The position numbers and the translations under genes were made by a program. Shown one piece after another: positions 3,201-29,445 of a stretch of DNA of 32,161 nt. The first letter of the stretch is position 1. Each line of letters opens with the position of its first letter. The notes beneath the pieces are model-generated. The model worked only from the letters and a program-made list of their open reading frames with translations, was not told the DNA's origin and ran no database searches. Source of the stretch: Planctomycetota bacterium (GTDB lineage: Bacteria > Planctomycetota > Planctomycetia > Pirellulales > Lacipirellulaceae); assembly GCA_039190745.1 (NCBI GenBank), contig JBCCXZ010000045.1:1-32161 (forward strand), in the 5' to 3' direction.

Positions 3201-3318
3201 GCTCACGCTCGAATTCATCCAGCTCGAAACGATCATCGCGTCGCTGCAGCAAGATCAGAACGCCTTGGAGTCGCTCCAGCCGATTGCCCCGCTAAGCATC
3301 CAACGCAGAAGCCAGTAA
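214..3318 (+). CDS. fliD: flagellar filament cap protein (HAP2), extended with internal repeats, 1034 aa
   Basis: FliD_N-like start (GLASGLDIQSTVDQLM); C-terminal FliD features (SETNTFEDVISGVTLT, FVESYN, GISLDADGKLSLD, terminal coiled coil); followed by fliS. Confidence 0.92.
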   Translation: MGRITSNVGLASGLDIQSTVDQLMQLNAIPRDNLFNRTEALKSEQVAVTTLSARLATVQFDLGKLNSTSLYSSRQVVSSNESVLSLSVDSDATPPVGSFSVRTVQTASSQQLVSQRFDADDIDLGTGSFSFGVGGFVDEGASLDSIRSGEGFDRGQIRITDRSGESAVIDLSTARSVDDVLDAINLQTEINVTAAASGDAFVLTDGTGGSGNLTVQEVSGGTTAASLGLDAIDVAADQATGSDIFDLYSGTKLSELNDGNGVRIVEGTDDFTITVSDGTEIDVDLSGDKTLGDVIASIEAAVEEQGAGKLTAAIGTGDRLVLTDATTGSGELTVTSNVGSAAAELGLTGPASGNTLTGDALASGLKDTLLSSLNGGAGFDQLGAIDINGTQIDLSTAETLGDVVDLINASGVAAEASINAQRSGIAITATGGGTLSIQNAGDSTNTADSLGIATTAATAAVDSGALDRQTLSEATLLASLDGTDEFLLGDIRITDSSGAVGVFDLNTEGNEALTVGDVIDRINNDGSVGVTAAINSTGDGILLTDTAGGTGTLGVSDINGNVAERLNLTGASTTVDIEGTPTQVIDGTRRYTVDVTDLESSATSLALSSLKDGAGITLDGDIIITDSAGERLALDLNGSDSGIKTVGDFIDLINSKASQQGVGVTASIDETGTGIAITDTAGGDDDLTVADIGGSVAASLGIAGETEDGAIQSTGLFSAASAGQNALENLVDRVNELNAGVTASVIADNGGFRLALTVDEAGAGNELLLDLGGTALEFEELISAEDALIVYGESALPGSGLLLASETNTFEDVISGVTLTVNTVSDEAVEVNVTESDTDLISAANDFVESYNVLRSELDELTSFDEVDLTTGLLFGSGEALRVESVLGRILTDRYLGLGGIASLEQAGISLDADGKLSLDQSKFSEAFSENPDSLRSFFTDEAGGFVASFSEAIDQLAGAENSLLTNRSDSLQQTITSNEERIGTLDSQLERERERLTLEFIQLETIIASLQQDQNALESLQPIAPLSIQRRSQ

Positions 3319-5154: not shown

Positions 5155-5590
5155 ATGGCCAAAAACCGCTACGCCGAGGAGCAGATCGCGTTCGTGATAA
5201 GTAAGCACGAATCTGGTACGGCGATTGCCGATATCGTCCGGAAAATGGTGGGCAGCGAGCAGAGGTTCTACCTCTGGGAGAAGGAGTCCGCGGGGATGGG
5301 CGTCGCCGGGCTGCGATCTCTAGAGGGCCTCCAGGAAGAAAACAACAAGCTCAAGCAGCTGGTGGCAGGACTTTCGCTCGCCAAGAAGATGCCGCAGGAT
5401 GTCGCGTTAGAGAAATGTCTCAGCGGCGCTCGTTATGGCAGGCTTTGAAGCGACTACAGGTCCTTATAAGGCGAGAGAGCTTGGGCGTGCCGCATCGACT
5501 GCGGTACCCGCCCGAATCACCGCTACCAGAGCCGCCGCGACCAGCGAGCCAAGCTTCGCACCCGCTTGCACGACCGCATTCTCGCACCGT
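5155..5590 (+). pseudogene. IS3-family transposase remnant (orfA plus start of orfB, truncated)
   Basis: MAKNRYAEEQIAF...FYLW...LQEENNKLKQLVAGLSL is an IS3 OrfA HTH/zipper pattern; HRYQSRRDQRAKLRTRL at ~5518-5570 resembles the OrfB N-terminus; no DDE core follows. Confidence 0.8.
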
Positions 5591-5619: not shown

Positions 5620-7791
5620 TCAAGAGGTAGCGTGAGTTAAGAGTTCACTAGTGATATATTTGAGACTCTTTTCTTCACCGAGCAAGGGGCCCTGGCCGTA
5701 CTTGCAACCAATCGCCTTTAGGACTTCCAAGTGAGAGTGATCGGACACGCCCGAGTAGATAAGCCCTGCCTGGAGTCCCTCGGCGAGCGTTGCGACGACC
5801 TCCAGCTCCGCCGCAGGCTCGAAAGGCTGCTTTGCTCCTTGTGTCCTGCGCTCTCCGATCCTTAGGTATCCCTGCCTGGCAAGAGCCAGCAAAGAGAGAG
5901 ACACCCGCCCCAACTCGCAACCAGATAGCGCTATCGAGAAGCCTTCTTCGCCGAGCGCCGAAATCGTCGCGTGTTCGTCTTCGCTGAGCTGATCCATCGA
6001 GTGTTGCCAGAAGCTGAGGATGATGTCACGCGGGCTGATCCCCTCACTGCTGACAACCTCGGCAAGCGCCTCAGCACTGGCTTTACGGTCACTCCGCCAC
6101 GAGGCGTTCTCGAGTAAGAGCTTAACGCTGTCGAAGCGATCATCCTCGCGTCTCAAGAGGGCTAGTTGTGAGCAAGCCATCCGCAGGGTCTTCAACTCAA
6201 CAGCGGCCTCGATGCCGTTGTCCGAGGCAACTTCTGCAATCACACCGTGGCGGGCCTCATCGTACCGAGGGTGCCGCCACGCCAGACGGCACTCGAACGC
6301 TAAAAGGTCCCCGGACTGGACGTTTACAATCGGTGAACATAGGGTCTGGAGTGGTGAATCGGTCTGAGGCGTCTCTGCGGAGTCCACTAGAGCGTTGAGG
6401 TCTTGCAAGAGCGCGGATCGCATCTCGTCATCCTGCCGCATCTCCGGACTGAACGCGCGGTACCCGTTCTTTCCTTCTCGCTTAGCCTCGTACATTGCTC
6501 GGTCGGCCAATAGTAAGAGGTCTTCTACGGAACGGGCCTGCGGTGTAGGCAGAGTGATGCCGACGCTCGCGGACGGATTGATGTAGTGCCGTTCCAGGAG
6601 CAGGGCCGGTTTGGAGATGACGTCCACCAGCCGCGCGGCGATCGTAGACGCGGCGCGTTGGGAGTCGACGTCCTCGACGAGCACGGCGAACTCGTCTCCA
6701 CCGATTCGAGCGACAACGGAGTCTGCCTGCCGCACCGAAGATTCCAACGCCCGCGCTATGAGGACAAGCAGCTCGTCACCGGCTGCGTGACCGTAGGTAT
6801 CGTTTACACCCTTGAATCCATCGACATCGATAATAGCGACGGCAAAGGGGCGATCGGGATTCCGCAGGTACTGCTGGAGGCGGTGCGAAACTCTTTCTAG
6901 GAACAGTGCCCGATTAGGAAGCCCCGTCAACGCGTCCGCGGATTTACCCTCGGTAACGTCGGTGAGGGAGCCGGCCATGCGGACAGCTTTGCTGTCGGAG
7001 AAGACCGCTTTGCCCCGGCAGAGCATCCAGCGGTACTCGCCCAACTCGTGATGCATACGGAGTTCGACCTCAAAGCACTCTGTTTGTCCGGCCAGATGTG
7101 ATGTGAGGGCGTTGTGTACGCGTTTGCGGTCATTATCGTGAACCCGGGAAAACCAGTGGTTAGGCGAGTCTAAGTGCTCCAGCTCAGGCAGCCCAAGCAT
7201 CGCTTGCCAACGCGGCGAGAAGTAGACTGTTTCTTTGAGGATGTCCCAGTCCCAGATGCCGTCGTTCGTGCCCCGAACCGCAAGCGTGTACCGCTGCTGG
7301 CTCTCGGAGAGTTCCTGTTGAATCTGCTGGAGCCGCAGGTGAGTGCTCAGCCGCACCATCGAAGTTTCGGCATCGAACGGTTTAGTAATGTAATCGTTGG
7401 CGCCAGCCCTGAAGGCGGCGACGATGCTTTCGCGGTCGTCGTCTGCGGTCACCATCACCACAGGCAGTTCGGCTTCGCTAAAAGATCGCCGGACCTCGCG
7501 GAGCACCTCGAACCCATCCATGCCCGGCATAGAAACATCGAGAAGAACAACCTCGAAGCGGCGTTGCAGCAGGAGCTCTAAGGCGCCCAAACCGTCGTCC
7601 GCGGTATCGAAAGAGGCCCCTAGCTGACTGCAGATCTTACCCAGGATCAACTTGGATACTTCCTCGTCATCAACGATAAGCACACGCGACGAGCAAAACT
7701 GGCTGGGGTCTCGGAGCGCATCTTTCTCAGAGAGCCCGCTAGCCAGATTCATTAGGCATGGTTGTGTCTTCTGGTTTTCCCCGGACATCAT
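5620..7791 (-). CDS. response-regulator diguanylate cyclase: REC-PAS-GGDEF-degenerate EAL
   Basis: REC (VLIVDD, LLDVSMPGMDG, DYITKP); PAS (NDGIWDWD...YRWMLCRG); DALTGLPNR; intact GGDEF at 6688-6702; EAL-like C-terminus with mutated motifs; start chosen at ATG 7791 after a G-rich RBS-like run. Confidence 0.9.
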   Translation of the reverse strand: MMSGENQKTQPCLMNLASGLSEKDALRDPSQFCSSRVLIVDDEEVSKLILGKICSQLGASFDTADDGLGALELLLQRRFEVVLLDVSMPGMDGFEVLREVRRSFSEAELPVVMVTADDDRESIVAAFRAGANDYITKPFDAETSMVRLSTHLRLQQIQQELSESQQRYTLAVRGTNDGIWDWDILKETVYFSPRWQAMLGLPELEHLDSPNHWFSRVHDNDRKRVHNALTSHLAGQTECFEVELRMHHELGEYRWMLCRGKAVFSDSKAVRMAGSLTDVTEGKSADALTGLPNRALFLERVSHRLQQYLRNPDRPFAVAIIDVDGFKGVNDTYGHAAGDELLVLIARALESSVRQADSVVARIGGDEFAVLVEDVDSQRAASTIAARLVDVISKPALLLERHYINPSASVGITLPTPQARSVEDLLLLADRAMYEAKREGKNGYRAFSPEMRQDDEMRSALLQDLNALVDSAETPQTDSPLQTLCSPIVNVQSGDLLAFECRLAWRHPRYDEARHGVIAEVASDNGIEAAVELKTLRMACSQLALLRREDDRFDSVKLLLENASWRSDRKASAEALAEVVSSEGISPRDIILSFWQHSMDQLSEDEHATISALGEEGFSIALSGCELGRVSLSLLALARQGYLRIGERRTQGAKQPFEPAAELEVVATLAEGLQAGLIYSGVSDHSHLEVLKAIGCKYGQGPLLGEEKSLKYITSELLTHATS

Positions 7792-7887
7792 CGCCCCCCT
7801 TAGGAAATCAGTTGCTTCGGCGCTCGGTGTCTGGCCTCCTGGACCGTACACCTCTTGGCGTAGCTGCTACTGATCGTGTGTCTTTCG

Positions 7888-10800
7888 TTACGCATGAACT
7901 GGGTCGGGGAGTGTCTGGTCTGTCGCCGAGGGCGGGTCGCTGTTCCCGGCTGCCTTGACAAGCGCCTGGGCAAGCACCTCGGGCTGGACCGGCTTCGTCA
8001 GGTGGCCGTCCATCCCTGCGCCGTTGCATTTCTGTGTGAACTGCGGGCTGACATGGGCCGAGAGTGCGAATACGGGGGTTTTCGGACGCCCCTCTTCTTG
8101 CTCCAAAGCCCGGATTTGTTCTGTTGCGGCGAAGCCGTCGAGTTTGGGCATTTCGATGTCCATGAGCACTATGTCGAAGCGGCCTTGCCGGTAGGCGTCG
8201 ACCGCTTGCTGGCCATCGTCGGCTGTTTCCGCTTCGTGCCCCATTAAGCCGAGGATGCCCTTGGCAACTTCTTGGTTGACCGGGCTGTCGTCCGCGACAA
8301 GCACACGCAGCGGCCGGCATGCTGCAGAGGCTAGCGAGACCGGCCGAGCCTTGGCTCGGCGACTTGTTGCGCCCGTTGCCGAAAGCAGGGCGTCGACCAA
8401 CTCCTCTCGCTTCGCTGGCTTCATGACTGTGTTCCGGATGCCTAGCAGACGGCAGCACTCAACGATCTCGACGTTGCCGGCGGGCAGAACAGCAACGAGC
8501 GGGCGGTCCGCCTCGCTTCGTTTCCTCAGCCGTTCTCGCAGGCTGTCGATATCGGATAGATCGCTTGCGGCAACGTCCACGACAGCGGCGTCGACTGGTT
8601 CGAACTCTTCACCGGCGGGATGGCTGTCGGGGTGCAGGCCTCCGTCTCTGATTCCGACTGTTGAGGAAGCCCCGCAATCGGCGAGCAAGTCTTCGTAAGC
8701 TGCGAGCAAGACCGGGTCTTTCGCGACGATCTCGACGCGGAGGCCGTCTGCGGTTGCGGGCTGCTCCTCGGCTGCCGCCCCGTCGTCGGTGGGCGTCGCG
8801 CGTTTCAGCGGGATGTCGAGGTGGAAGGTGCTGCCCTGGCCTTCTTCGCTTTCTAGCCAGATCTTTCCACCCATCAACTCGGTCAGTTGCATCGAGATGG
8901 CAAGCCCCAGACCGGTGCCGCCATACCGTCTTGTGGTGGAGCTGTCTTCCTGGCGGAACGCATCGAAGATGACGCCCACCTTGTCCGCCGCGATGCCAAT
9001 GCCCGTGTCTTCCACCGTGAAGTGCAGCACGACGCCCCCGCCGCTCTCTTCGCCCTTCTCGATTCTGACGAGCACGTGCCCTTCCGCAGTGAACTTCACG
9101 GCATTGCTGACAAGGTTGACGACGATCTGGCGTATGCAGTTTGGGTCGCCTACCAGCCGCTCAGGCACTTCTGGAGCGATCGAACAGATCAGTTCTATCC
9201 CCTTCCCAAACGCCGGCACGGCAAGCAACCGGGCCGCGTCGATAACCACTTCGCGTAGACTGAAAGAGATAGCCTCTAGCTCCATCTTCCCCGCTTCGAT
9301 CTTCGACAGGTCGAGAATATCGTTGAGCAGGTTTAGAAGGGCGCCACCGGACTGTTTTACGGTTGTGAGATAATTCCGCTGTTGGTCGTTAAGGGGCGTG
9401 TTCAGGACCAGTTCGGTCATGCCCAGAACACCGTTCATCGGCGTTCGGATCTCGTGACTCATTGTGGCCAGGAACCGACTTTTTGCCTCATTAGCTTCCT
9501 CCGCGGCCTGTTTGGCCGTTTGCAGCTCCTGCTGGGCGTCGCGAAGCTCATTGGCTTTGCGTTCCAGCAAGTCGTTCGAGACGGCCAATTCTTCGGCCCT
9601 GGTTTCCGCCGCGGCGGTGCGGTCGGCGACGCGTTGCTCGAGTGTCGTGTTCAGATCTTGTAGCTTTGCGAAGCCCTCGGCGTTTTCGAGCGCGGCGCCA
9701 GCTATTGCCGCGATGAAATCGGCTAGCCTCTGCTCGTCGGCCCCGAATAGCCCGCTGATACGTGAGTGCACGACACACAAGATCGAAACGACGCGGCCAC
9801 GCACAAGTATGGGGACGCAGAGTTCCGAAGAGTTGGTCTCCAAGGTTGCATCCGTGGCCTGTGCGCGATCGAGGACCGTCGAGCGTTTGGCCTCGATAGC
9901 CTCTTCAGCAAGCGGGGGTGAGACTTGAAACGATTCGCCCCGGGCCTGCGCATCGGACTCGACGAGTTGGCCTTCGTTGTCGACCGACCAAACGTAGCAA
10001 CGCTCACCCCGGAGCAGGCGGAGAGCCGCTTCTTGAGCCTGCTGGTGAATCACATTTGGGTCGAGAGAAGACGCGATGCTTCGGCCAGTGTCGAGTACTG
10101 TGTCGAACCGGTCGATCAGCGAGAGGCTTAGCTTCTCATTGGAATCGACGGCTTCGTTGCGTTCGGCGGCGGCCCCTAACTCGGCGAGGATTATGCTCGC
10201 GCGGCGGGCGTAGTCCTCGAACCCGTCCCAGCCGGCTTCGGCGGCCACGCGGTGCGCTTCGAGCAGCGTTTCTGCGGCTTGCAGGCGCTCACCGAGCTTG
10301 TTGGCGTGGGACAGGCTTTTACCAAAGTAGTACCTGGCTCGCCGGCTCTCGCCGCGCATCGCCGAGACTAAGGCCAGCTCTCGGTAGGCTTGCGGGAGGT
10401 CGTTGCGGCAGATGAATCCACTCCGGATTGCGGAGCGCGCCGAGCGGGCCGCCTCCCGCAAGCAATGGAGACGTCGGTCCGGAACCGCGCGGGTGTCTTT
10501 TTGGGCCGCCAACCTGAACGCAGTTGCGCTCCACGCGTACGCCGGGAGCGTGTAGGCGTTCTTTACACCTGCGCCCGCTGCCGCGTCGAGTGCCCGCTCA
10601 AACTTCTGTGCGGCGGCCTCGAGCTGAGATTCGGCAATATGGCAAATGCCCTGGGCGAGGTAGACCTGACACGCGCCCTGTGCGTCGCTCCTCTCCCGCC
10701 TCGCCTCGAGTTCCATGACCTGGGCCGGGATACGGCCGGAGGAAGCCCGGGCCCAGACATCGAGGATGATGCCGGAGGCTTGTTCGTCGCCGGTTTCGAG

Positions 10801-13800
10801 CCCCGACTGTCGATTGAGCTTGGCCTCGGTGATCGCACCTTCGAGGTCGCCAAGGTAGTGGAGTGACGCCGCGATTTGGTAGCGGGCCATGTGGATCTGC
10901 CAGTAGTCGCCGAGCTTTTCGAGGACACGGATGGCCGACCGGCAGGATTCAATGCATTCTTGGAACCGCGACGCTGCGAACAGGGTGATGCCCAGGAAGA
11001 CTAGAGCCTGTCCTTTGCCCCAGGTGTCGTCGAGTTCCTCACGCATCCGGATGGCCTTCTTCGCGTAACGAACCCCTCGGCTGAAGTAGCCGATGATGCT
11101 CATCCCGGGGCCGTGCTCGGAGTAGGTCAGCGCGAGCTCTTCACTCGGGAGGTACCGCTCCCCCATGTTCAAGTTGCGGAAGTGGACCCAGAGCATCTGC
11201 ATCTGCTTCCTGGAGTACCAGCACCCGTGGGCGAGGCAACTGAGCAGCCGCATGGTGAGCCGTTCCGATTCGTCTGGGCGACGCTTGATGCGGTGGACGA
11301 ACAGCCTGGGGCACCACGTGTGCAGCACCTGGACGAAGCACTCCCAGCAAAGGAAGGCGAACAGGCTTGCGGTGTTGTTCGGTACCGTCTGACGCTGGAG
11401 CCGGAGCGCGTGCTCAAAGTTCTGTATCGCGTGCCCCATGTTGCCGCGTTTGAAGTGCAGCTCGCCGATCTTCCCGCGGATCGCGGCCAGCGGGCGCCCG
11501 GACTCTGCGAGCAGAGACGCTTCTTCGAACCACTTGCCGGCGTCTTCGTAGCGGCCGCGCAGCATGAGCACGTCGCCGAGCCCTTCTAGGATTTGCAGTC
11601 GATTATCGCGGGACGGCACCCCTCGCAGAGCGATGTGGTATTGCTGCTCCGCGATCTCGAGGGCGAACTGCGATCGGGCGCTCTCGGCGGCTTTAACCGC
11701 GAACTCGAAGGCGTCTTCGGGGCGGTCGCCTGCGTCGAAGTGGTACGCGATATCCGAAGCACGGTGCGGGTCTTCTTTCAGAAGGTGGCGTGCGGCGTTG
11801 AGGTGGTGGTCTCTGAGTGTCTGCTCGGGGAGGCTCTGGAGCACTGCCGAGCGGATCTTATCGTGAAAGAAAACGCACTCCGCCCCATCGGGCCGAACCC
11901 AAACAAGTTGCCGTTCCCTCGCGCGTTCGAGCGCATTGATCACTTCCTCGGCCGAGAGGCCGGCGAGCTGTTGAGCAACGTGCAATTCGAAGGTTTTCCC
12001 TAACACAGCACCGACGGCGAGCAGTCTTGTAGTTTCGGCAGGGAGCAACCCCAGGCGACGCGCGAGGACCGAACCGGCTTGATCGGACGAGCCCGCGTCA
12101 TCGAGAGCGGCGGGGTCTACCTCCCAACCGGAGTCTACGGGGCGGATCGCTTCGCACTCTACGAGGCCGCGCAGCACGGCGGACGCCATGAACGGGCTTC
12201 CGCCGGCAAGCCGTACTACCGTTTCAGCGGCTTCCTCTGGAAGCCCGCCGGCCATCGAGTCGGCGAGTTGGCGCACCTCGTCATCGCGGAGGGAAAGCAG
12301 CTTGATCGACGCGGTGGTTTTGACCTCTCGGAGCAGGTGGTCCTGCGGGATCTCGTCGGAGCGGAACGCGAGCACCAGCAGAAGTGAAGGTTCATCTACT
12401 CCTTCGGAGGCCTGCTTCGAGGCGATCCGTTTCAGCAGCCGGATAGTCAGCTCATCAGCCCATTGGCAGTCGTCGAGCAGGATGAGTGCCGGTTTGTCGA
12501 GCTTACCCAGCGCTTCCAGGAGCGCAACGAGCGCTTCGATAGTACGCGCCTCAGCCGTTTCATCGGGTGCGGAAACCGTAGAGTTCTCGACGCCGATGGC
12601 TGGCGCCAAGGCCGGGAGCGCTTCGACGATGGGGCCGATCTTGTCTCCCAAGATCCAGATCAACCGCCCGCGAAGCTCCGGGCGTCCGGAGACCTCGGAC
12701 ACAACCCCTTCGACCACGCCGTCGAGGAGCCGGTACGGCCTTGAGGAAACGTCGCTGGCGCCGTTCCCTCGGAAGACGCGGTATCCTTTCCTGGACGCCA
12801 CCCTGAGCGACTCTGCGAGGAGCCGAGACTTGCCGGCGCCGCTCTCGCCTTCGACGGACGCCACCACTTTGGCTCCTTCGGAGGCGTTTTGCATCGCTTC
12901 TTCGAGCGTCGCCAGATGCTCGGTTCGAGCAACGAAGGCAGGCTCGACTAGCGACGCCCTCTTGTCGGTCGCCCCGAGCACTATCGCGGGATCGGCGTCG
13001 CCGTTCTCGATGCTCGCAGATATCTTCTCGAGGTCCGCAAGAGCGGCATTGGCAGACTGGTACCGATCGCGGGGGTCTTTCTGCAGCAGACGCTGGACGA
13101 AGTCCTCTAGCACAACGGGCGCCGACAGACCCGGTCGAGACATCTCGGGGACCGGTTCGGTCATGTGTTTGAAGAGTACGGTGCCGACCGAATCCCCCGC
13201 GAACGGTGTCCGACCCGTGAGGCAGTAGTAGAGTAGGACGCCGAAAGAATAGAGGTCTGATGCGGGGGAGAGCCCTTCGTCGATAGAGCCCGCCTGCTCT
13301 GGCGAGGAGTAGAGCGCGACTTCTAGCGGCTGAAGTTTCAGCGGCGTGTCTGGCTCGACCGCGAGACACAGACCGTAGTCGGTCAGCACGACCCTCGCGT
13401 CGGCTTTCGTCGACAGGTCGACGAAGACATTCTCGGGACGCAGATTGCGGTGGAGAACCAGCAAGGCGTGCAGATCCCGGAGCCCGGCGAGGACCCCGCG
13501 CCCAACCGCAAGTGTGTTTTCGAGCGTCAGTGGACCGTGTCCCTGAAGCGGGGCGCCGTGAGCCGCTTGGCTCGCGAGCCAGCAATCTCCATCGGCCCGG
13601 AACACGCCAAGGCAGTTGCTGAAGTGGTTGCTCTCGGCCTTGGCTAATAGTCTTGCCTCGTGCCCCAGCCTCATCTCGACCGATGCGGAAATCGAATCGT
13701 CCGGTAAACGCTTGAGGACAATTGGCTTACCGGACTGCGTGTCCGAACCGTGGTAGTAAGACGCGCCCTGTCGGCTCCCGGCGAGTGCGGTGAGCGCGAA

Positions 13801-13878
13801 CCGTTCAGCTACCATGCGGGGCTCGAAGCGCGCACCGTGGTTGTCGTCCGCTCTGGGAGTATCGGACTCGGAAACCAT
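7888..13878 (-). CDS. soluble hybrid sensor: Ser/Thr kinase-like domain - AAA/STAND-type ATPase - TPR-like helices - GAF - HisKA - HATPase - pseudo-REC - REC (~2000 aa)
   Basis: IVLK, HRNLRPEN, DYG, SPEQ, SDLYSFG; Walker A GESGAGKS, Walker B LILLDD, GGSPF; FHDKIR; GAF (LCVPILVRGRVV); H-box MSHEIRTP, N-box NAVKFT, DTGIG, GGTGLGL; REC LVADD/DIEMP/KP. Start uncertain (13878 or 13815; ORF open to 14091). Confidence 0.9.
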   Translation of the reverse strand: MVSESDTPRADDNHGARFEPRMVAERFALTALAGSRQGASYYHGSDTQSGKPIVLKRLPDDSISASVEMRLGHEARLLAKAESNHFSNCLGVFRADGDCWLASQAAHGAPLQGHGPLTLENTLAVGRGVLAGLRDLHALLVLHRNLRPENVFVDLSTKADARVVLTDYGLCLAVEPDTPLKLQPLEVALYSSPEQAGSIDEGLSPASDLYSFGVLLYYCLTGRTPFAGDSVGTVLFKHMTEPVPEMSRPGLSAPVVLEDFVQRLLQKDPRDRYQSANAALADLEKISASIENGDADPAIVLGATDKRASLVEPAFVARTEHLATLEEAMQNASEGAKVVASVEGESGAGKSRLLAESLRVASRKGYRVFRGNGASDVSSRPYRLLDGVVEGVVSEVSGRPELRGRLIWILGDKIGPIVEALPALAPAIGVENSTVSAPDETAEARTIEALVALLEALGKLDKPALILLDDCQWADELTIRLLKRIASKQASEGVDEPSLLLVLAFRSDEIPQDHLLREVKTTASIKLLSLRDDEVRQLADSMAGGLPEEAAETVVRLAGGSPFMASAVLRGLVECEAIRPVDSGWEVDPAALDDAGSSDQAGSVLARRLGLLPAETTRLLAVGAVLGKTFELHVAQQLAGLSAEEVINALERARERQLVWVRPDGAECVFFHDKIRSAVLQSLPEQTLRDHHLNAARHLLKEDPHRASDIAYHFDAGDRPEDAFEFAVKAAESARSQFALEIAEQQYHIALRGVPSRDNRLQILEGLGDVLMLRGRYEDAGKWFEEASLLAESGRPLAAIRGKIGELHFKRGNMGHAIQNFEHALRLQRQTVPNNTASLFAFLCWECFVQVLHTWCPRLFVHRIKRRPDESERLTMRLLSCLAHGCWYSRKQMQMLWVHFRNLNMGERYLPSEELALTYSEHGPGMSIIGYFSRGVRYAKKAIRMREELDDTWGKGQALVFLGITLFAASRFQECIESCRSAIRVLEKLGDYWQIHMARYQIAASLHYLGDLEGAITEAKLNRQSGLETGDEQASGIILDVWARASSGRIPAQVMELEARRERSDAQGACQVYLAQGICHIAESQLEAAAQKFERALDAAAGAGVKNAYTLPAYAWSATAFRLAAQKDTRAVPDRRLHCLREAARSARSAIRSGFICRNDLPQAYRELALVSAMRGESRRARYYFGKSLSHANKLGERLQAAETLLEAHRVAAEAGWDGFEDYARRASIILAELGAAAERNEAVDSNEKLSLSLIDRFDTVLDTGRSIASSLDPNVIHQQAQEAALRLLRGERCYVWSVDNEGQLVESDAQARGESFQVSPPLAEEAIEAKRSTVLDRAQATDATLETNSSELCVPILVRGRVVSILCVVHSRISGLFGADEQRLADFIAAIAGAALENAEGFAKLQDLNTTLEQRVADRTAAAETRAEELAVSNDLLERKANELRDAQQELQTAKQAAEEANEAKSRFLATMSHEIRTPMNGVLGMTELVLNTPLNDQQRNYLTTVKQSGGALLNLLNDILDLSKIEAGKMELEAISFSLREVVIDAARLLAVPAFGKGIELICSIAPEVPERLVGDPNCIRQIVVNLVSNAVKFTAEGHVLVRIEKGEESGGGVVLHFTVEDTGIGIAADKVGVIFDAFRQEDSSTTRRYGGTGLGLAISMQLTELMGGKIWLESEEGQGSTFHLDIPLKRATPTDDGAAAEEQPATADGLRVEIVAKDPVLLAAYEDLLADCGASSTVGIRDGGLHPDSHPAGEEFEPVDAAVVDVAASDLSDIDSLRERLRKRSEADRPLVAVLPAGNVEIVECCRLLGIRNTVMKPAKREELVDALLSATGATSRRAKARPVSLASAACRPLRVLVADDSPVNQEVAKGILGLMGHEAETADDGQQAVDAYRQGRFDIVLMDIEMPKLDGFAATEQIRALEQEEGRPKTPVFALSAHVSPQFTQKCNGAGMDGHLTKPVQPEVLAQALVKAAGNSDPPSATDQTLPDPVHA

Positions 13879-14312
13879 GCCAAGTTTCTGTGTCGAGTTA
13901 CAGGCGCCGCAGCACTCAGCGACGGTGCGGTTTGACTCAACAAAACCATACGTTGTCACAGGATACGGACAGGCTTCGGTTAACCGAATTGTGGAGGGCC
14001 CTGCTCTCTCACTGCACTCCTCGAGCCTGGGAACGCCGTTGCAATCCTGATTGTTGTTGCAATCCGCAACACACTCAGAGAGGCCCGACACGGTGTTGTC
14101 TTGAAAAGGTCTGATGTGTGTGACGGACGTGCAGTCGGGTGGTTGGGTTGCCCCCCTAAAAAACCCCGGAAATTCCTTGGAACCCGTGCGACGAATGCGC
14201 TAGGATGTGCTCCCGACCAGACACCTCCATTGCAGCGGGATAGCAAAGGATGGTCCTTACGAAATGCGTTAAGCATTCCCCATCAATTCCGCACGTATCA
14301 GGTCTGTGAACA

Positions 14313-15848
14313 ATGAGAGATGTAGAAAGCCGCGCGGGGCTTACGTCGCCGCTTTTCGAGATCACATGGGAGCAAGACGTCGCGACGCGTATGGACCCGG
14401 CGCTGGTCACGTCTTTCCTACGCGAACAGGTGCCGGTCCTTGAGTTTGTGGATTGGCAGCTCACCTCCGTGAGCCCCGGCTCGGTCGAGGCTGTGCTCCC
14501 GCTCAATCCTCCTTCGACCAACCAGCACTTTACACATCAGGCGGCGTTGATCGTGCTGAGCGCTGATTACACGGGCGGCTCGGCGTTAGCAACACTGCTC
14601 TGGGGCTGGCCGGTCGTGGGGGTCCACCCGGTTGACTCTCCGGACTCCGTTTCGATGTGGCTGTTGAAGGCCGAGATGAAGTACCTGAGGCCTAGCACCG
14701 GAAACCTCACCGTGCGCGCCGAGGTCGACGAATCGCGACGCGAGAAGATTCAGAAGCGGTTCCTCAAGGGGAAACCGGTCATCGAGTCCCTGACGATGCA
14801 GTTCATGAATGACGACGAGATTGTAGCCGAAGGGACGTGCACCTACTTCCTGAGACAGTCCACGGCGCTGCGGAGCACCGGCGTCGATCCCGATAAAGTC
14901 AACACGCTCTATGCGCTGAAGCTAACCTCATCGGCAGAGATGATCGCCGGCGTCCGCGCGTTAGAGAGCGGCGGTCTGTTCGAGGACCCGTACGCGGAGA
15001 GCATGGCCGGCCAGCACGGCATGGCGGTCGCAGCACGCTTCTGTGAGCGGACCCCTCAACTCGGCAACATGGTGGCGGCGAGGACCAAGCACCTCGACGA
15101 CGTGATGACGAACTTCACAGCCGCCGGGGGAAGGGACATCGTAAACATCGGGGTCGGCTGGGACATGCGTCCCTTCCGTCTCAACCTTCCTGAAGGGACG
15201 CGCTTCTATGAACTTGATTTCCCAACCACGCTCAACGAACGGGAGTCCCGAATAGAAGCTCTCGGAATTCACACTCCCGAGGGGATCGAGCGGGTGTCGA
15301 TCCCTATCGACCTCCGGACGATGAACCTTCCCGAGACGGTTCGGGGCGCGGTGCCGGGCGACCGGCCTCTGTTGCTCGTCTGGGAGGGCGTGTCGATGTA
15401 CTTCGAAGAACAGGACGTCAAAGAAGTCTTGGTGAATATGCGGTCGCTCCTGAGCCACGAGGGCAGCCTGCTGTGGGTCGACATGGTCGACCGCGAGCCG
15501 GTGGTCAACCCAGCAGCGTTCCCAGGGTCGGTTCAGGACTTTATGCGGGGGATGCAGATCCTCGGAGAGCCTTTTATCTTCGGCAGCGACACGCCGGTCG
15601 AGTTTATCGAAGACTGTGGCTTGCGGTGCCTGGAGGTGGTGACGTCCGACGTGTACTTCCCGGATTCGGCGGAACCGGTCTACTCGATCTACCAGTTCTG
15701 CACCGTCGCCGGGGGAGTGACTCAGGACCAGCCCAAGACGTTCAAGCGTACCGACGTCCGGCGTCATCCGGGAAGCGTACCGCAGCCGCACTTCAACGGG
15801 TTTGCAGACGCGCCCGTCACGGCGGTGAAGCGAGAGCCCTCGAAGTAG
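14313..15848 (+). CDS. fusion of an N-terminal hotdog-fold (YiiD_C/PaaI-like thioesterase) domain and a C-terminal LCM/YktD/TcmP-type SAM-dependent methyltransferase
   Basis: N-half: VEAVLPLNPPSTNQHFTHQAALIVLSADYTGG...AEMKYLRP (hotdog pattern). C-half: IAGVRALES..LFEDPYA, ARTKHLDD, IVNIGVGWDMRPFRL, YELDFP, IDL, VWEGVSMYF (LCM-family motifs). Alternative start ATG 14391. Confidence 0.82.
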   Translation: MRDVESRAGLTSPLFEITWEQDVATRMDPALVTSFLREQVPVLEFVDWQLTSVSPGSVEAVLPLNPPSTNQHFTHQAALIVLSADYTGGSALATLLWGWPVVGVHPVDSPDSVSMWLLKAEMKYLRPSTGNLTVRAEVDESRREKIQKRFLKGKPVIESLTMQFMNDDEIVAEGTCTYFLRQSTALRSTGVDPDKVNTLYALKLTSSAEMIAGVRALESGGLFEDPYAESMAGQHGMAVAARFCERTPQLGNMVAARTKHLDDVMTNFTAAGGRDIVNIGVGWDMRPFRLNLPEGTRFYELDFPTTLNERESRIEALGIHTPEGIERVSIPIDLRTMNLPETVRGAVPGDRPLLLVWEGVSMYFEEQDVKEVLVNMRSLLSHEGSLLWVDMVDREPVVNPAAFPGSVQDFMRGMQILGEPFIFGSDTPVEFIEDCGLRCLEVVTSDVYFPDSAEPVYSIYQFCTVAGGVTQDQPKTFKRTDVRRHPGSVPQPHFNGFADAPVTAVKREPSK

Positions 15849-15904
15849 CCGGACTCAAAGCCTAACCGCATAGTCCTGCGTACTGCGAAGCTATCGAAAG
15901 ACAG

Positions 15905-17188
15905 TCATCGTGCGCCGAAGGTGCGCGTGAATCCGAAAGCGAGAGCGTGGGTGCGGTTGCGGTGGATGCTCTGGTCGAAGTCGCCGCCTACGAAGGCGCT
16001 TGTCCCGACTTCTACGGTTGGCCCGAACGAGTACATGTAAGCGGTGCTGACCTGCCAGCCCCGCCAGTCGAACCCGTACCCCAGCGAGAAGGCGTGCTCG
16101 AGTGCGCCCGGGATCCAGGGCGTGATCGTATCGTAGGGGATCGGGCTCTTGTGGTGGACGTAGCCCGCCCGGACGATATGCCCGCAGCCCAGGCGGTGCT
16201 CGACCCCGACGCGTGTCGAGACGGTGTCGACCCAATTGAGAGGGAAACGCTCGACAACGTTCGGCGGGTAGCCCGCATTGGTTGGCGAGCTGAGGTTGAT
16301 CTCTAGCGTATCGAACGCGTCCGACCAGTTGTACCAGATGACGTCGGTCGCAATGACGGTGTTCCGCGTGAGCTGATGACGAAAGCCGCCGCCGAAGGAC
16401 CTCGGCCACGTTACTTTTGTTTCCGCGTTGTAGTACGTCTGCCCTAGAGGCGAAACGAGTCCGACCTCACCATCGGCGTCGACCTCAACCTGCGAGAGGT
16501 AAGAGAACCCAACGGTTGTGCGATCAGTCAGCCGGCAACTGAGCCCCGCAGACCAGGTGATGCCGACGCCGTCGACCCCCAGGTCGAGAAGCGAAGGCAG
16601 CCCCGTCGCCGGGGCGCTCTGCAGCGTGTAAGGCCCCTCGAGGTTCACAAACGACAACCCCGGACCGAGCGTGCCGCCGATGGAGAGGAAATCATAATCT
16701 TCGGGCGTGTACGAGGCGCCGATGAGAACTTTGGTGAGCGACCCGAACGACTCGTACACCTGAGGCCCGCCAAACGGTACGGGGCCTTCGAGGTTGTAGA
16801 TCGAGCCAAATCCATTCGGCGTGTAGACGCCTACGCCCAAAGCCCACTGGTCGCTCAACCGCTCGACGTAGCCGATCTCGGGGATGGGGTACATCTGGTT
16901 CTGAGAGCGTTGTTGGGTGTTGTCGGCGTCCCCGTAGTCGAAGTGCGTAAACAGGAACGTGCCGCCGAGCTGCAGCATGGCGTCGCCTTCGATCTGCCCC
17001 ATCGCGGCGGCGTTGTCGTGCAGGATCGAAGTGTTGTCGGCGAAGCCGAGGTTTGTTCCGCCCCGCCCGATGCTCACAGCAGAGACGCCGTCGAGCGTGA
17101 TCCCGTCGGCGTGCAGGAGTTTCTCTGAGCAGAACGGCCCTGCCGCCAGGCAGAACGCGGTGAGAATGGTTCGCGTTGTAATCCGCAC
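15905..17188 (-). CDS. FadL/OmpP1-family outer-membrane channel for hydrophobic compounds
   Basis: Signal peptide (GTG 17188; RITTRTILTAFCLAAG...LHA|DG); SIGRGGT...DNTSILHDNAAAM hatch-like segment; GVGVYTPNGFG; alternating beta strands; aromatic C-terminal strand (AFGFTRTF). Confidence 0.85.
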   Translation of the reverse strand: MRITTRTILTAFCLAAGPFCSEKLLHADGITLDGVSAVSIGRGGTNLGFADNTSILHDNAAAMGQIEGDAMLQLGGTFLFTHFDYGDADNTQQRSQNQMYPIPEIGYVERLSDQWALGVGVYTPNGFGSIYNLEGPVPFGGPQVYESFGSLTKVLIGASYTPEDYDFLSIGGTLGPGLSFVNLEGPYTLQSAPATGLPSLLDLGVDGVGITWSAGLSCRLTDRTTVGFSYLSQVEVDADGEVGLVSPLGQTYYNAETKVTWPRSFGGGFRHQLTRNTVIATDVIWYNWSDAFDTLEINLSSPTNAGYPPNVVERFPLNWVDTVSTRVGVEHRLGCGHIVRAGYVHHKSPIPYDTITPWIPGALEHAFSLGYGFDWRGWQVSTAYMYSFGPTVEVGTSAFVGGDFDQSIHRNRTHALAFGFTRTFGAR

Positions 17189-17341
17189 AGTTTGCCCCCG
17201 CTGACACTGGCCGGCGCGTTCAGATTCGTGGTTACAGACCTTGCAACCTGTACAAAAGAAATCGGCTTTTCCTGCTTCCAGAGTGAGGCAGTACCCTGCT
17301 GCCAAGGCTACGGCTTGGCCTCGGCAGGAAAGCTATTCCGA

Positions 17342-18418
17342 TTAGGCAGGTTCGAGCACCGCTTCCGCGACACTAGCCTGAGCGCCAGCAAGTACCGCCG
17401 GCGGTCCTTCCCGGCCGGGGGCCGCCTGCAGCTTCTTAGAAACCGCCACGAATTCGCTTTCTCGAGCGAGAAAGGCTTCGACGACGCGGTCGTCGAAATG
17501 ACTGCCCGCCCCGTCCAGCACGATTTCCTTGGCCTTTTCGTGGCTGAACCGGTCTTTGTAGATACGCTTCGAGCTCAAAGCGTCATAGACATCTGCTAAA
17601 GCTGTGATGCGCCCGCACAACGGGATCTCTTCGCCCGACAAGCCGAAGGGGTATCCTTGGCCGTTTACTTTTTCGTGATGAGAGAACGCAATGTCTTTCG
17701 CTAGCTGCAGATACCTGGCGTTTGGGCTTGTCTCCAACGCTGTTCGGAGCGTTTCCCCGCCGATGGTAGTGTGCTGCTTCATGACCTCGAACTCCTGCGT
17801 GGTCAGCTTGCCCGGCTTGAGCAGCACACTGTCAGGTATCCCGACCTTGCCGATGTCGTGCAGAGGTGCAGTGAGGTAGATCATCTGGACATAATCGCCG
17901 TCGATCTCTTCCGCGAACTCGGGCCATCCGGAGAGTTCTTCGGCGAGGATACGGCTGTACTCTCGCATCCTCTCGAGGTGTAAACCGGTTTCGATATCTC
18001 GAGACTCTGTGAGCTTTGCCAGCGTGAACAGCAGCGTGTCGCGCGTTTCAAGTGACAAGACGCGTTCACCTGTTCGAAGTCTAACCCGTAGCTCTTCGGG
18101 CTCAAAAGGTTTGACCAGGAAGTCGTCTGCGCCCGCCCTCAGGCCTCCCACCAAGTGGTCCATGTCCTTGTGGGAGGTAAGCAGAATGAAGTAGATGTAA
18201 CCACCCCACTGCCGTTTTCGGATCTGGCGACAAAGATCGTCACCGTGCATGCCGGGCATGCTCCAATCGGAGATCACGAGGTTGTACTCACCGGTCCGGA
18301 TGAACTCGAATCCTTCAATCCCGTCGGTTGCGCAGGTGACCTCGTAGCCGTAGTGGTGGAGAGCGCCTTTGAGCAGTTCCAGCGAAACAAGGTCGTCGTC
18401 GATCACAAGCACCTTCAT
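17342..18418 (-). CDS. REC-HD-GYP c-di-GMP phosphodiesterase response regulator (RpfG-like)
   Basis: REC (VLVIDDD, SDWSMPG, DDFLVKP); ETGLHLER, LHDIGKVGIPD, HHEKVNGQGYP, ADVYDAL. Confidence 0.93.
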   Translation of the reverse strand: MKVLVIDDDLVSLELLKGALHHYGYEVTCATDGIEGFEFIRTGEYNLVISDWSMPGMHGDDLCRQIRKRQWGGYIYFILLTSHKDMDHLVGGLRAGADDFLVKPFEPEELRVRLRTGERVLSLETRDTLLFTLAKLTESRDIETGLHLERMREYSRILAEELSGWPEFAEEIDGDYVQMIYLTAPLHDIGKVGIPDSVLLKPGKLTTQEFEVMKQHTTIGGETLRTALETSPNARYLQLAKDIAFSHHEKVNGQGYPFGLSGEEIPLCGRITALADVYDALSSKRIYKDRFSHEKAKEIVLDGAGSHFDDRVVEAFLARESEFVAVSKKLQAAPGREGPPAVLAGAQASVAEAVLEPA

Positions 18419-18471
18419 GGCTTTCCTCGCTTGGCGTCGCTAGACAACCTGTGCCGCGTTATGCGGGCTGA

Positions 18472-18870
18472 TCAGCTAACCTGCTCAGGCGCGAGCGGTT
18501 CGTCTTGTTCTCGACCGCCTGTGCCCATTAAATCCGACAACTGATCCCAACCTTCCCGTAGCCCGCTAACGCCCTCCCGAGAAGCCGGTGCGTCCATCGC
18601 CTTGGAGGCCTGGCAGAGGTCTTCTGCGATTTGGCTCAATCCGTCGGCTGAGGCGTTGGCAAACGCACCCTTCAGTCGATGGGCGATACCGTACACCTGT
18701 TGGAAGTCCTCGTTCTGGACAGCCGCTTCGATTGCCTCAATGTCTGGTTCACAGCGCTCGCTGAGGATATCCAATATGCGGCTGGCGAATTCAAGATTCC
18801 CGAAGCAACGATCCAACAGTGTGTCGACGTTGACTGCGCCCGAGTATCTGTCTAGGTCGTCGTGCAGCAT
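18472..18870 (-). CDS. stand-alone Hpt phosphotransfer protein
   Basis: Helical 132 aa with AHRLKGAFAN (H-x-L-K-G Hpt motif); first gene of the Hpt-HD-GYP-FadL run. Confidence 0.88.
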   Translation of the reverse strand: MLHDDLDRYSGAVNVDTLLDRCFGNLEFASRILDILSERCEPDIEAIEAAVQNEDFQQVYGIAHRLKGAFANASADGLSQIAEDLCQASKAMDAPASREGVSGLREGWDQLSDLMGTGGREQDEPLAPEQVS

Positions 18871-19199: not shown

Positions 19200-19950
19200 G
19201 TTCGGTGTATTTGCCGAACGAGTAATGATGCCTGAACGTGTCGTAGCACCTACTCCACTGCTCGATAGCAGTTTGTCGAACTCTCTCTTACCAGCAGCAG
19301 GTCGCGTAGGCGACCGTTGAAGCTCTCACGCCATTTTTAGAAGACGCCGGCCGTTCTCCTAGGGAGAGCCACGCTAGAGGAATAGCTTTATCGCCATGGT
19401 GCCGGTGAGCCACTTTCGAACACTCATCGCTGTGAACTCCCGTCCGTTGTCACTACGCAGGAAGCCAGGCGCACCACGGTCGGCAAACAGGCCGCTGAGC
19501 CGCTCCAGTACGTCCTCGCCCTTGAGTTTCCCGACCGGGTTGATCGCGACACGCCCACGGGTGTGCTCGTCGATCAGCGTCGACACCCGGAAGCCCCTGC
19601 CGTCGCTGGCTTGGTCGGAAACGAATCCGTATGTTCTAGAAGTGATTGGGGGACGTCGGACTGAGCCGGACGCATGAAACTTCCACCAGCCACAGGCGGC
19701 TACGCATCGCCAGCAGCTTTGTGAGCTTGGCGTTCTCCTGCTCCAGCTGCTTCAGACGCTCGCCTGATCCATTCGCAGGCCGTCGCGGTCTTCGAAAGGA
19801 CTCGGCTTACGCGAGCGGATCAGCGTCCGCACCGCAACGCCACTCTTCTTATCGGCTAACTCCTGGATCGTCCACCTGAGACAAGCCCCTCCGCCTCGCG
19901 GAGCTTCGATTTGAATATGCTCTGCCGTGTACTTCTTGCCAAGTGCCACC
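19200..19950 (-). pseudogene. degraded IS3-family transposase (orfA and integrase-core fragments)
   Basis: Fragments RLKQLEQENAKLTKLLA (~19705-19760), FRVSTLIDEHTR...RGAPGFLRSDNGREF (~19430-19600), GSP*ENG and ESFNGRLRD (~19300-19370); stops, frameshifts and internal deletion; ends approximate. Confidence 0.85.
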
Positions 19951-20253
19951 TTTTGCCCCCCCTTAAGCTGCGTCCTGACGCCCGGCGTATCTTATGCTAG
20001 GGAGTTGCCTCGTAACTTGGGAAGCTAGGTCGACCCTGGCCCAACCTTCCCTCAATTCCCGTCCGCAACCCAGACGAATCCATACCCATGCTACCAAGAC
20101 ATAGTGTTGCGACATCGCAAGGCCGATGCCAGAATAAGTCAGTATAGCGTTGGCTTTGTTTGCCAGACACGCAACTGGAAGGAACCACAACCCACACGCC
20201 ACTCCGCCAAGCCCAACCAACCCCGCCTCACAGCAATCGATCGGCGACGTTCC

Positions 20254-21153
20254 ATGGCTGAACCCCAAGTCATCCGCTTTTGCCCCGAGTGCAGCTCACG
20301 CGTCCAAGCCCCAGAAAGCGTCTTCGAGGGACCGTGTACCTGCCCCACGTGCGGCAAGCATGTCCAGTTCTTCGATTACCCTCGGGAGCCCACCCCGAAA
20401 CCGAGCATCCCCAAGCAGACGAAGCCCAAGACATCGGCCGACCTGCTTGTGAGCGTCTCACTCGGCCTGGCTGGCTTGTTCGGCATCGGAGCCCTAGTCG
20501 CATTGCTCGCCGGCTTCGGCGGCGTCTCCGCTGTACTGAGCCTGCTAGGCCTGGGTGCCGCCGCCGGCTTGGTTGTCCGCTACGCCGGCCTGCGACAGCA
20601 AGTGCTCCGAGCAGGCGAGATGATCGAACGCACCGAGCGTTCGCTCAAGCTCAGCAACGCCAAGATCGAGTCCGCCGCCAAGGTGAACCAAGGCCTCAAG
20701 CAGAACTTCAATGTCCTCGTAGAGGAGGAAGCGCGCCGACTCGACGCCGGTCTGGCCCAACGGATTAAGGAAGTCGAAGACGCTGAAGCCCACGCCAAGG
20801 AACTGCTCTCCATCGCCGAGCAACGGACCGCCAAAGTGAAGAACCTAGGCGAGCGGCTCATGACTGAGGCCTTCGACAACCTCCGCAAGGGCGTCACACC
20901 GGTAAACTTTGCCGAGCGACGGCAGCGCCTCCGCGAAGCGGTCGAGTTCTGTAACAAGAACGACTGCTTTATCAGCAAGGCGCGGGAAGAGGAATTCGCC
21001 TCCGAACTGACCGAGTTCTGTAACGCTAACCGCCAAGAGTTGCCCGACTCGCCGCCGACCGGAGCCGGACGGGCGATGGAGTCGACCTTGGTTGAAGACC
21101 CCGAAATCGCACAGCTCATGAAAGACCCCGAAGCGCCTAAGACGCTAGATTGA
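20254..21153 (+). CDS. hypothetical membrane protein: Zn ribbon, two TM helices, coiled coil
   Basis: CPEC...CPTC at the N-terminus, a long hydrophobic Gly/Leu hairpin, then charged heptad-like helices; C-ending codon bias from ATG 20254. Confidence 0.75.
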   Translation: MAEPQVIRFCPECSSRVQAPESVFEGPCTCPTCGKHVQFFDYPREPTPKPSIPKQTKPKTSADLLVSVSLGLAGLFGIGALVALLAGFGGVSAVLSLLGLGAAAGLVVRYAGLRQQVLRAGEMIERTERSLKLSNAKIESAAKVNQGLKQNFNVLVEEEARRLDAGLAQRIKEVEDAEAHAKELLSIAEQRTAKVKNLGERLMTEAFDNLRKGVTPVNFAERRQRLREAVEFCNKNDCFISKAREEEFASELTEFCNANRQELPDSPPTGAGRAMESTLVEDPEIAQLMKDPEAPKTLD

Positions 21154-21188
21154 TCGGCTAGCAGCCTCCTCAACGGAATACGAGTAGC

Positions 21189-21404
21189 ATGGATTCCTCA
21201 AGCGACCCGCGGGAGAGCGACCTCGTTCGGTGGTTGCGTGAGCAAGGCCACGGCGAGGCTGAGGTCGAACGGATTATGGAGAAGGTTAAGGAGTACGACG
21301 AGAAGACAGTCCGAGAATCCGTATTTGACTCTCTAGAAAGCGGCTCGTTCGATATCGCAAAGATCATCGACGAGGCCCTCGGGCAGGACGAGCCTGAAGG
21401 TTGA
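21189..21404 (+). CDS. small acidic hypothetical protein (71 aa)
   Basis: ATG 35 nt after the preceding stop; amphipathic helical sequence. Confidence 0.65.
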   Translation: MDSSSDPRESDLVRWLREQGHGEAEVERIMEKVKEYDEKTVRESVFDSLESGSFDIAKIIDEALGQDEPEG

Positions 21405-21433
21405 TCGATCCTGCCGGGATCTCCATTAATGCA

Positions 21434-21461
21434 AGCGGGCCCGGCTTTCGCCGAACCCGCT
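21434..21461 (-). terminator. probable intrinsic terminator of trxA (may be bidirectional)
   Basis: Minus strand AGCGGGTTCGGC-GAAA-GCCGGGCCCGCT (12-bp stem with two G-U pairs) followed by TGCATTAAT; lies between convergent genes. Confidence 0.6.
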
Positions 21462-21493
21462 CTAGTTACTTCTTACTTCAGCTTGCTGGCGAA

Positions 21494-23221: not shown

Positions 23222-23381
23222 TAGGAACGCCAGGAAGCGTTAACCGCTGCGGAGTGACGGCGGCGGGCCAGGCAGGAAGCGAATCACGAGTAGATTGAGA
23301 TGAATCCATTGCGCGGTACCATCTGAGACGAGGTATCTATAGCATCGTCAGGCTCAAGTCACGACAGGGTTGTCCGGCTCG

Positions 23382-29371: not shown

Positions 29372-29445
<74 letters not shown>

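Follow-up and report, generated by a model that had tools for sequence, protein, structure and literature searches.

A conserved planctomycete gene module joining a hotdog-carboxyl-methyltransferase fusion, a FadL channel and a soluble STAND-type histidine kinase: a candidate relative of Phc-type signaling

The stretch of DNA analyzed here, hereafter called the window, is the entire 32,161-bp contig JBCCXZ010000045.1 of a Planctomycetota bacterium (assembly GCA_039190745.1), whose genome is 3.9 Mb in size and 95% complete. We describe in it a putative signaling module of six contiguous open reading frames (ORFs), five of them conserved as a set, that occupies positions 5620-18870 with no unrelated gene among them, as a preliminary description made from the letters alone had stated. 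The module consists of a REC-PAS-GGDEF protein with a degenerate EAL domain (5620-7851, minus strand), a giant soluble hybrid sensor kinase (7888-14091, minus), a fusion of a hotdog domain with a carboxyl methyltransferase (14313-15848, plus; 511 amino acids), a FadL/TodX-family outer-membrane channel for hydrophobic molecules (15905-17305, minus), a REC-HD-GYP response regulator, predicted to be a cyclic di-GMP (c-di-GMP) phosphodiesterase (17342-18418, minus), and a stand-alone Hpt phosphotransfer protein (18472-18870, minus; 49 bits with Pfam Hpt). All of the domains reported earlier were recovered with Pfam; the degenerate EAL domain and the N-terminal pseudokinase domain of the kinase had been overlooked.

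The kinase and fusion genes are divergent and share one intergenic region (14092-14312), as had also been noted. It measures 221 bp with the longest kinase ORF, or approximately 430 bp, reaching down to 13879, if the kinase uses the internal ATG at 13878. Searches of this region returned no Rfam family (for example, no c-di-GMP riboswitch), no sigma-70-like promoter (0 found versus 2.2 expected) and no motif kept past the closest relative.

The fusion protein is composed of a MadB/YiiD_C/PaaI-like hotdog domain at residues ~30-185 and an OPCMT-like (LCM/TIGR00027) carboxyl methyltransferase domain at residues ~200-470. The latter scores well above the cut-offs of both Pfam LCM (PF04072; 100.9 versus 22.3 bits) and TIGR00027 (106.6 versus 93.55 bits), and the structure model of the protein has a mean predicted local distance difference test (pLDDT) value of 82.3 and a predicted template modeling (pTM) score of 0.78. 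For the methyltransferase half, ML2640c and Rv0731c rank first in sequence and fold, and human LCMT-1 comes next. Among known folds, the hotdog half most resembles PA5026 (1sh8), 1t82 and the malonyl-acyl carrier protein (ACP) decarboxylase MadB (8ayv, TM-score of 0.80 normalized to the target); this N-terminal half of the fusion has in addition a weak alignment to a PaaI-type thioesterase (3e1e, E 0.068).

According to the excerpted text of PMC10193983, ML2640c and Rv0731c methylate a carboxyl group of small molecules in vitro and possess a large hydrophobic pocket; the same excerpt gives Thr20 and Tyr/Phe194 as the carboxylate-holding landmarks of the OPCMT-like family. In the profile alignment to 2ckd_A, residues R257, G282, D302, D333-L334 and E358-G359 of the fusion fall on the S-adenosylmethionine (SAM)-site residues Arg90, Gly115, Asp135, Asp164-Leu165 and Glu189-Gly190 of ML2640c, and they are invariant or nearly so in 35 sequences, while Ala113 and Ser114 of ML2640c correspond to G280 and V281. 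The Tyr194 landmark is matched by Y363, which is invariant in the 35 relatives and in 30 much more diverse fusions. Thr20 lies outside the aligned part; judged by eye, a conserved T205-S206-S207...R215 stands at the expected place. In the hotdog half, the motif STNQHFTHQ...D85 is invariant among relatives, and N70, H72 and T74 resemble, by eye, the N-x-H-x-T catalytic loop that the excerpt of PMC8666670 describes for the Mad proteins. N70 is retained across all 30 diverse fusions, its match to Asn45 of MadB being made by eye only. Taken as a prediction from these features, the fusion is likely to be the synthase of a methyl ester. The simplest chemistry using both halves would split an acyl thioester to liberate an acid, which is then O-methylated, while the hotdog domain may instead act as a decarboxylase or merely bind acyl-ACP.

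The kinase ORF encodes 2067 amino acids, in which Pfam recognizes Pkinase, AAA_16, TPR, GAF, HisKA, HATPase_c and REC domains in this order. The Walker A motif (GESGAGKS at residue 415) of the STAND (signal transduction ATPase with numerous domains) portion and the H-box (HEIRTP at 1546) are both intact. The Ser/Thr-kinase-like domain carries HRN in place of the catalytic HRD; the corresponding motif was found by pattern in 23 of 36 related kinases, and the Asp is missing in 21 of these 23, so that the N-terminal domain is to be regarded as a pseudokinase. A crude Kyte-Doolittle scan detected no membrane-helix-like stretch of 19 residues outside the GAF domain, which agrees with the earlier reading of the protein as soluble. 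Its true start is probably the ATG at 13878 or that at 13815, judging from the sequence, and the orthologues align from residue 37-93 onward. In the genome, the window kinase is the only full-length gene of the Pkinase-AAA_16-TPR-GAF-histidine kinase architecture.

The remaining proteins provide a channel and a putative output. The channel matches PF03349 (Toluene_X) with 102.7 bits against a cut-off of 29.7, and its translation probably starts at GTG 17188, which would give a signal-peptide-like N-terminus. The REC-HD-GYP protein (Response_reg 90.5 bits, HD_5 81.4 bits) contains the motifs HDIGK and GYP together with the Asp context of a receiver, and is predicted from them to be the c-di-GMP phosphodiesterase output. 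The Hpt protein carries the HxxKG motif as HRLKG. The protein at 5620-7851, whose gene lies 36 bp downstream of the kinase gene, contains REC, PAS_3, GGDEF (142 bits) and EAL (86 bits) domains; the GGDEF motif is intact at residue 384, and the EAL and DDFGTG motifs are missing from the EAL domain. It is likely, on these motifs, to be a diguanylate cyclase that serves as a lineage-specific second output, as a homologue follows the kinase gene in only three of 17 related loci (L005, L012 and L019). With the GGDEF protein present in 4 of 18 loci, the window included, and carrying a degenerate EAL domain, the pair of opposing c-di-GMP enzymes proposed in the preliminary description would be a local feature and not part of the core. 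Pfam recognized neither a DNA-binding domain in the six module proteins (no search for PhcA was made in the rest of the genome) nor an exporter gene in the module.

The gene grouping is conserved among relatives. Relatives of the window fusion protein belong to Pirellulales planctomycetes (Aeoliella, Pirellulimonas and Thermoguttaceae). A scan of one genome per species yielded 14 loci, 12 with a full-length relative of the fusion (57-85% identity) and 2 with weak matches to the methyltransferase only; all 12 have the giant kinase beside the fusion in divergent orientation, as well as REC-HD-GYP and Hpt. Among 300 further genomes sampled from the same order, 14 carry the fusion, and kinase, Hpt and HD-GYP accompany it at 13 of the 14 places. 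Eight of these 13 loci repeat those of the first scan; counted once each, the two sets give 17 distinct loci, in which the fusion is at least 55% identical to that of the window. All five components, i.e. fusion, divergent kinase, Hpt, REC-HD-GYP and FadL, are linked in every one of the 17, and the Hpt gene always adjoins the HD-GYP gene. Two gene orders occur: kinase<- ->fusion <-FadL <-HD-GYP <-Hpt, as in the window, and fusion<- ->kinase ->Hpt ->HD-GYP ->FadL, indicating that the linkage has survived rearrangement. Outside the module, the related loci have no gene in common with the window. The grouping is far beyond chance, and of the neighborhood that the preliminary description had regarded as one circuit, all but the GGDEF gene is borne out as a conserved unit.

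The count for FadL deserves a remark. A tblastn search with the window FadL placed the channel in 7 of 12 and later in 11 of 17 loci, which proved to be an undercount as diverged FadL proteins were missed. A family search located a PF03349 gene just past the HD-GYP gene in five seemingly FadL-less genomes, and a hidden Markov model (HMM) built from the module FadLs detected the channel in 17 of 17. As side observations on these close loci, the fusion, kinase, HD-GYP and FadL genes of G546 (L013/L028) are all broken by stops or frame shifts, and in G678 (L007/L026) the kinase alone is split in two frames; these could represent decay of the module or assembly errors.

A phylum-wide sample of 400 other genomes contained no full-length fusion and gave matches to the methyltransferase domain only, starting at query residue 197 or later. 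The wider fusion family comprises 85 cluster representatives at E<=1e-30 in an exhaustive, profile-free search. Metagenomes were scanned with an alignment of 8 fusions, a 30-sequence alignment being too variable, and 62 loci were obtained, of which 42 of at least 6 kb collapsed into 26 clusters at >=95% nucleotide identity. Their fusions are approximately 35-41% identical to that of the window. In 15 of the 26 clusters a giant kinase, itself 35-41% identical to the window's, lies beside the fusion in divergent or co-directional orientation; FadL accompanies 11 of these 15 and REC-HD-GYP 4. The association of fusion and kinase claimed from the window alone is thus found again among distant fusions.

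The kinase is more widespread than the fusion: among the 300 genomes sampled from the order, 69 have full-length relatives of its sensor region (residues 93-1500) and 14 have the fusion. We took 20 kinase loci from fusion-less genomes. Most retain Hpt and REC-HD-GYP, FadL is present in 15, and in 13 the divergent slot of the kinase is occupied by a class I methyltransferase of ~370 amino acids. An HMM of these 13 proteins found a match elsewhere in L045 and L047 and a weak one in L044, raising the number to 16 of 20 at E<=1e-5, with no match in L041, L042, L043, L046 or any fusion locus. Five loci (L030-L034) have exactly the gene order of the window, with this methyltransferase replacing the fusion.

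Several lines of comparison suggest that the replacing enzyme is of the PhcB type. Sixteen of the 120 homologues listed bear the JGI name 'extracellular factor (EF) 3-hydroxypalmitic acid methyl ester biosynthesis protein'. A methyltransferase of a sister locus aligns over 338 residues with 24% identity (E 2e-18) to a protein encoded on a Paraburkholderia graminis plasmid (L050), where it is the first gene product of a phcBSRQ-like operon of methyltransferase, membrane histidine kinase, receiver and receiver. Cupriavidus proteins share ~68% identity with the Paraburkholderia protein, for which the JGI and NCBI records give the same EF name. The assignment of the sister-locus enzyme as PhcB-type rests on this protein, its Cupriavidus relatives and the source names, as NCBIfam offers no informative name for the PhcB-like methyltransferases. 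The planctomycete proteins (~370 amino acids, e.g. L037 5403-6518) lack the first ~115-130 residues of the Burkholderiales protein, which has 468 amino acids (L050 5614-7020) and aligns from residue 130. One genome, G598, has two sister giant kinases, one with PhcB-like methyltransferase, FadL, HD-GYP and Hpt (L030) and one with none of them nearby (L046).

The window fusion shows no similarity to the PhcB-type enzyme (best E 0.54), and the window genome contains no PF12147-type methyltransferase and nothing that matches a PhcB-like query. Strong PhcB-like matches occur in 27 of the 300 genomes; the kinase is present in 26 of these and adjacent on one contig in 24. A methyltransferase of either unrelated family is therefore the constant companion of the kinase, and by sequence comparison two unrelated methyltransferase families replace each other in one module. 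The earlier statement that the locus uses none of the known synthase types consequently applies to the window itself; the module family mostly uses a PhcB-type synthase. In a quick IQ-TREE phylogeny, for which only SH-aLRT (Shimodaira-Hasegawa-like approximate likelihood ratio test) support was calculated, 15 of 16 fusion-linked kinases group in a single clade that lies within the PhcB-linked ones, and the sixteenth falls in an unresolved fork. The tree does not track taxonomic families. Since the kinases of the distant metagenome fusions form a clade of their own, the synthase type has switched at least twice on this tree.

We propose that the module operates as a methyl-ester signaling circuit, to which we assign a probability of about 0.5. 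The cytoplasmic fusion would turn an acyl thioester (acyl-ACP or acyl-CoA) into a hydrophobic methyl ester, and the FadL-type channel would carry this ester across the outer membrane, such that it could leave and re-enter cells as in quorum-type signaling. The soluble pseudokinase-STAND-TPR-GAF hybrid kinase would sense the ester as its ligand and feed a His -> Asp -> Hpt -> Asp phosphorelay ending at the receiver of REC-HD-GYP. The net effect would be an altered level of c-di-GMP through breakdown by HD-GYP, with REC-PAS-GGDEF as a second, opposing relay target in this organism and a few relatives. The residues needed for such a relay are present, i.e. the H-box, the HxxKG motif of Hpt, the receiver Asp contexts, the HD and GYP motifs and GGDEF. 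Substrate, product, traffic, ligand-binding domain, relay order and the effect on c-di-GMP are what we infer from this gene content. The methylated acyl signal of the preliminary description gains support from the PhcB-type enzyme in the fusion slot and from the matches of the methyltransferase half, while the product itself stays a prediction.

A number of observations weigh against this proposal. Eleven of the 26 metagenome clusters have no kinase match, and in the order sample the fusion of G670 (L029; 37% identity) lies among unrelated genes without a kinase. Because the related loci are kin, the counts overstate their independence. Approximately 30 of the 69 kinase-positive genomes yielded neither methyltransferase with the two queries, and no methyltransferase was detected at E<=1e-5 at the kinase loci of G429, G644 and G550 or at the second kinase copy of G598. 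The hotdog domain reaches 21.6 bits with YiiD_C (PF09500), below the cut-off of 27, and thioester hydrolysis by it is a guess, since its nearest characterized fold relatives are malonyl-ACP decarboxylases, not thioesterases. With one fixed type-specific position in 2067 between fusion-type and PhcB-type kinases, no sensing domain is singled out. The kinase being cytoplasmic, nothing requires the molecule to leave the cell. FadL-family channels are importers, and the genome yielded no PF03349 gene besides that of the module, whose product could be a general importer.

The kinase-less metagenome clusters carry FadL in only one case of 11 (L091, which has only 518 bp upstream). Eight such loci were scanned against Pfam. 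In two of them the fusion is divergent from a pair of an extracytoplasmic function (ECF) sigma factor and a Ser/Thr kinase, and in L108 a Ser/Thr kinase lies upstream of the fusion with no sigma factor recognized. In L098, a gene for a KAS III (FabH-like ketoacyl-ACP synthase) follows the fusion directly and overlaps its stop. The neighborhoods concerned are L081 5815-8532, L098 4579-8384 and 10368-11342, and L108 6948-8141. The ECF-sigma and Ser/Thr-kinase neighbors may represent a second wiring of the same enzyme to signaling.

Three other explanations deserve consideration. The module could sense hydrophobic acids from outside, FadL importing them, the methyltransferase converting or detoxifying them and the kinase reporting to the c-di-GMP network. 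The importing nature of FadL channels, the single FadL of the genome and the cytoplasmic kinase would suit such a role, as would the acceptance of many carboxylic acids by OPCMT-like enzymes, for which the excerpt of PMC10193983 proposes carboxylic-acid homeostasis. However, a hotdog domain fused to the methyltransferase suggests that the substrate is a thioester of intracellular origin, the interchangeable partner of the fusion is homologous to a known signal synthase, and the distant locus L098 couples the fusion to a KAS III gene; we consider this explanation rather unlikely. A purely intracellular cue, in which the lipid or SAM state is reported by the methyl ester or by enzyme flux and FadL is linked for another reason such as precursor supply, seems to us a little less probable again. 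STAND and GAF sensors usually bind cytoplasmic ligands, neither the enzyme nor the kinase has a signal peptide or membrane segment, and the module is devoid of an exporter gene. What such a cue leaves hard to explain, without traffic at the outer membrane, is that FadL tracks the kinase-methyltransferase pair (17/17 close, 15/20 fusion-less and 11/15 distant loci versus 1/11 kinase-less).

It is also conceivable, albeit very improbable, that no small molecule is involved and the enzyme methylates a carboxyl group on the kinase or another relay protein as a CheR- or LCMT-1-like switch. The founding members of the LCM fold do methylate a C-terminal carboxyl of proteins, the fold matches include LCMT-1, a weak match to the CheR SAM domain (E 0.0011) was obtained for the PhcB-like protein of L050, and the enzyme gene always adjoins the kinase gene. 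On the other hand, the closest matches are small-molecule enzymes, and the Tyr that serves as their substrate landmark does not vary here; two unrelated methyltransferase families would need the same protein target, and the hotdog domain and FadL would be left without a role. Returning to the methyl-ester circuit, we would tentatively, at slightly less than even odds, extend it to Pirellulales and organisms known from metagenomes as an undescribed quorum-sensing architecture. In this architecture a self-made lipid methyl ester would enter by a dedicated FadL and be read out by a cytoplasmic STAND pseudokinase-histidine kinase with c-di-GMP output, the synthase being swappable, PhcB-type in most lineages and the fusion here.

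Comparison with known systems places the module closest to the Phc system of Ralstonia. The DSF (diffusible signal factor)/Rpf system of Xanthomonas comprises the synthase RpfF, the hybrid kinase RpfC and the REC-HD-GYP protein RpfG, and thus resembles the proposed circuit in passing a fatty-acid-derived signal via a hybrid-kinase phosphorelay to REC-HD-GYP. It differs in that the window kinase is soluble with a separate Hpt and the predicted chemistry yields a methyl ester; no crotonase/enoyl-CoA hydratase (RpfF-type) domain was detected among the 22 window ORFs scanned. At the level of the locus itself, the likeness to Rpf/DSF is confined to the terminal REC-HD-GYP protein. Like Phc, the module pairs a SAM-dependent methyltransferase gene with a two-component sensor, its sister loci use a PhcB homologue, and the predicted product class is a fatty-acid-type methyl ester; the product of PhcB is methyl 3-hydroxymyristate or methyl 3-hydroxypalmitate, as given in the excerpt of PMC13220807. 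In contrast, three defining features of Phc, namely a PhcB-family synthase, a membrane receptor and a PhcA-type output, are absent from the window locus. Its synthase is unrelated to PhcB, and its sensor is a soluble pseudokinase-STAND-TPR-GAF hybrid of ~2000 amino acids, whereas PhcS-type sensors are membrane kinases, that of L050 having a MASE8-like membrane region. The window output would run from Hpt to HD-GYP and c-di-GMP instead of through PhcR/PhcQ-PhcA transcription, and a FadL gene belongs to the module.

With the mycobacterial OPCMT-like enzymes (ML2640c, Rv0731c and MnMT2-6; PMC10193983), the fusion shares fold, Pfam/TIGRFAM family, SAM residues and Tyr194; those enzymes are stand-alone proteins of ~300 amino acids, while the window domain is fused behind a hotdog domain within a signaling module. 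With the malonyl-ACP decarboxylases MadB and MadA (YiiD_C, PF09500; PMC8666670), it shares the hotdog fold and, by eye, the N-x-H-x-T pattern, but falls below the family cut-off and aligns with a PaaI-type thioesterase in its N-terminal half. We conclude that the module is likely to be a relative of Phc-type signaling that shares its logic, its function being deduced from gene content.

A fragment of an IS3-type transposase orfA (5155-5448) lies 170 bp off the module end, and a tRNA gene at 29372-29445 (Rfam, 58 bits) is followed by a gene of the phage integrase family at 29614-30873. The G+C content of the module (0.57-0.64) is lower than that of the flanks (0.65-0.69). Taken together with the patchy distribution of the module, the integrase and tRNA, the IS3 fragment and the lower G+C hint at lateral movement. 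Beside the module, at 19396-21907, three ORFs of 93, 349 and 168 amino acids have no Pfam or NCBIfam match and no counterpart in any related locus, including the 85%-identical L012. A second STAND-type protein of 938 amino acids, with AAA_16 and TPR and without kinase domains, is encoded at 23370-26186. The flagellar cap protein FliD encoded at 214-3318 is unusually long (1034 amino acids): between N- and C-terminal domains of the usual kind it has a large insert. FliS follows it.

In the literature, judged by title or abstract, we found no paper linking planctomycetes to PhcB, none on this module or kinase architecture, and no described cell-to-cell signaling system in planctomycetes. The module is real and conserved, and it is apparently undescribed. 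What is new is, first, the soluble STAND-type receptor kinase accompanied by a stand-alone Hpt; second, a synthase of the hotdog-carboxyl-methyltransferase kind; and third, the interchange of synthase families in one module. Culturable carriers exist among Aeoliella strains and in Pirellulimonas nuda, which opens the proposal to bench testing. If it is true, a single locus would provide the phylum with a signal and its synthase, channel, receptor and output, all open to testing. Phc-type methyl-ester signaling would reach far past Burkholderiaceae, and PhcB would no longer be the only enzyme family capable of its role, an unrelated second one having been added. The widespread, uncharacterized Pkinase-AAA_16-TPR-GAF histidine kinases would obtain a first ligand hypothesis, and a lipid signal would be tied directly to c-di-GMP and hence to a switch between biofilm and motility.

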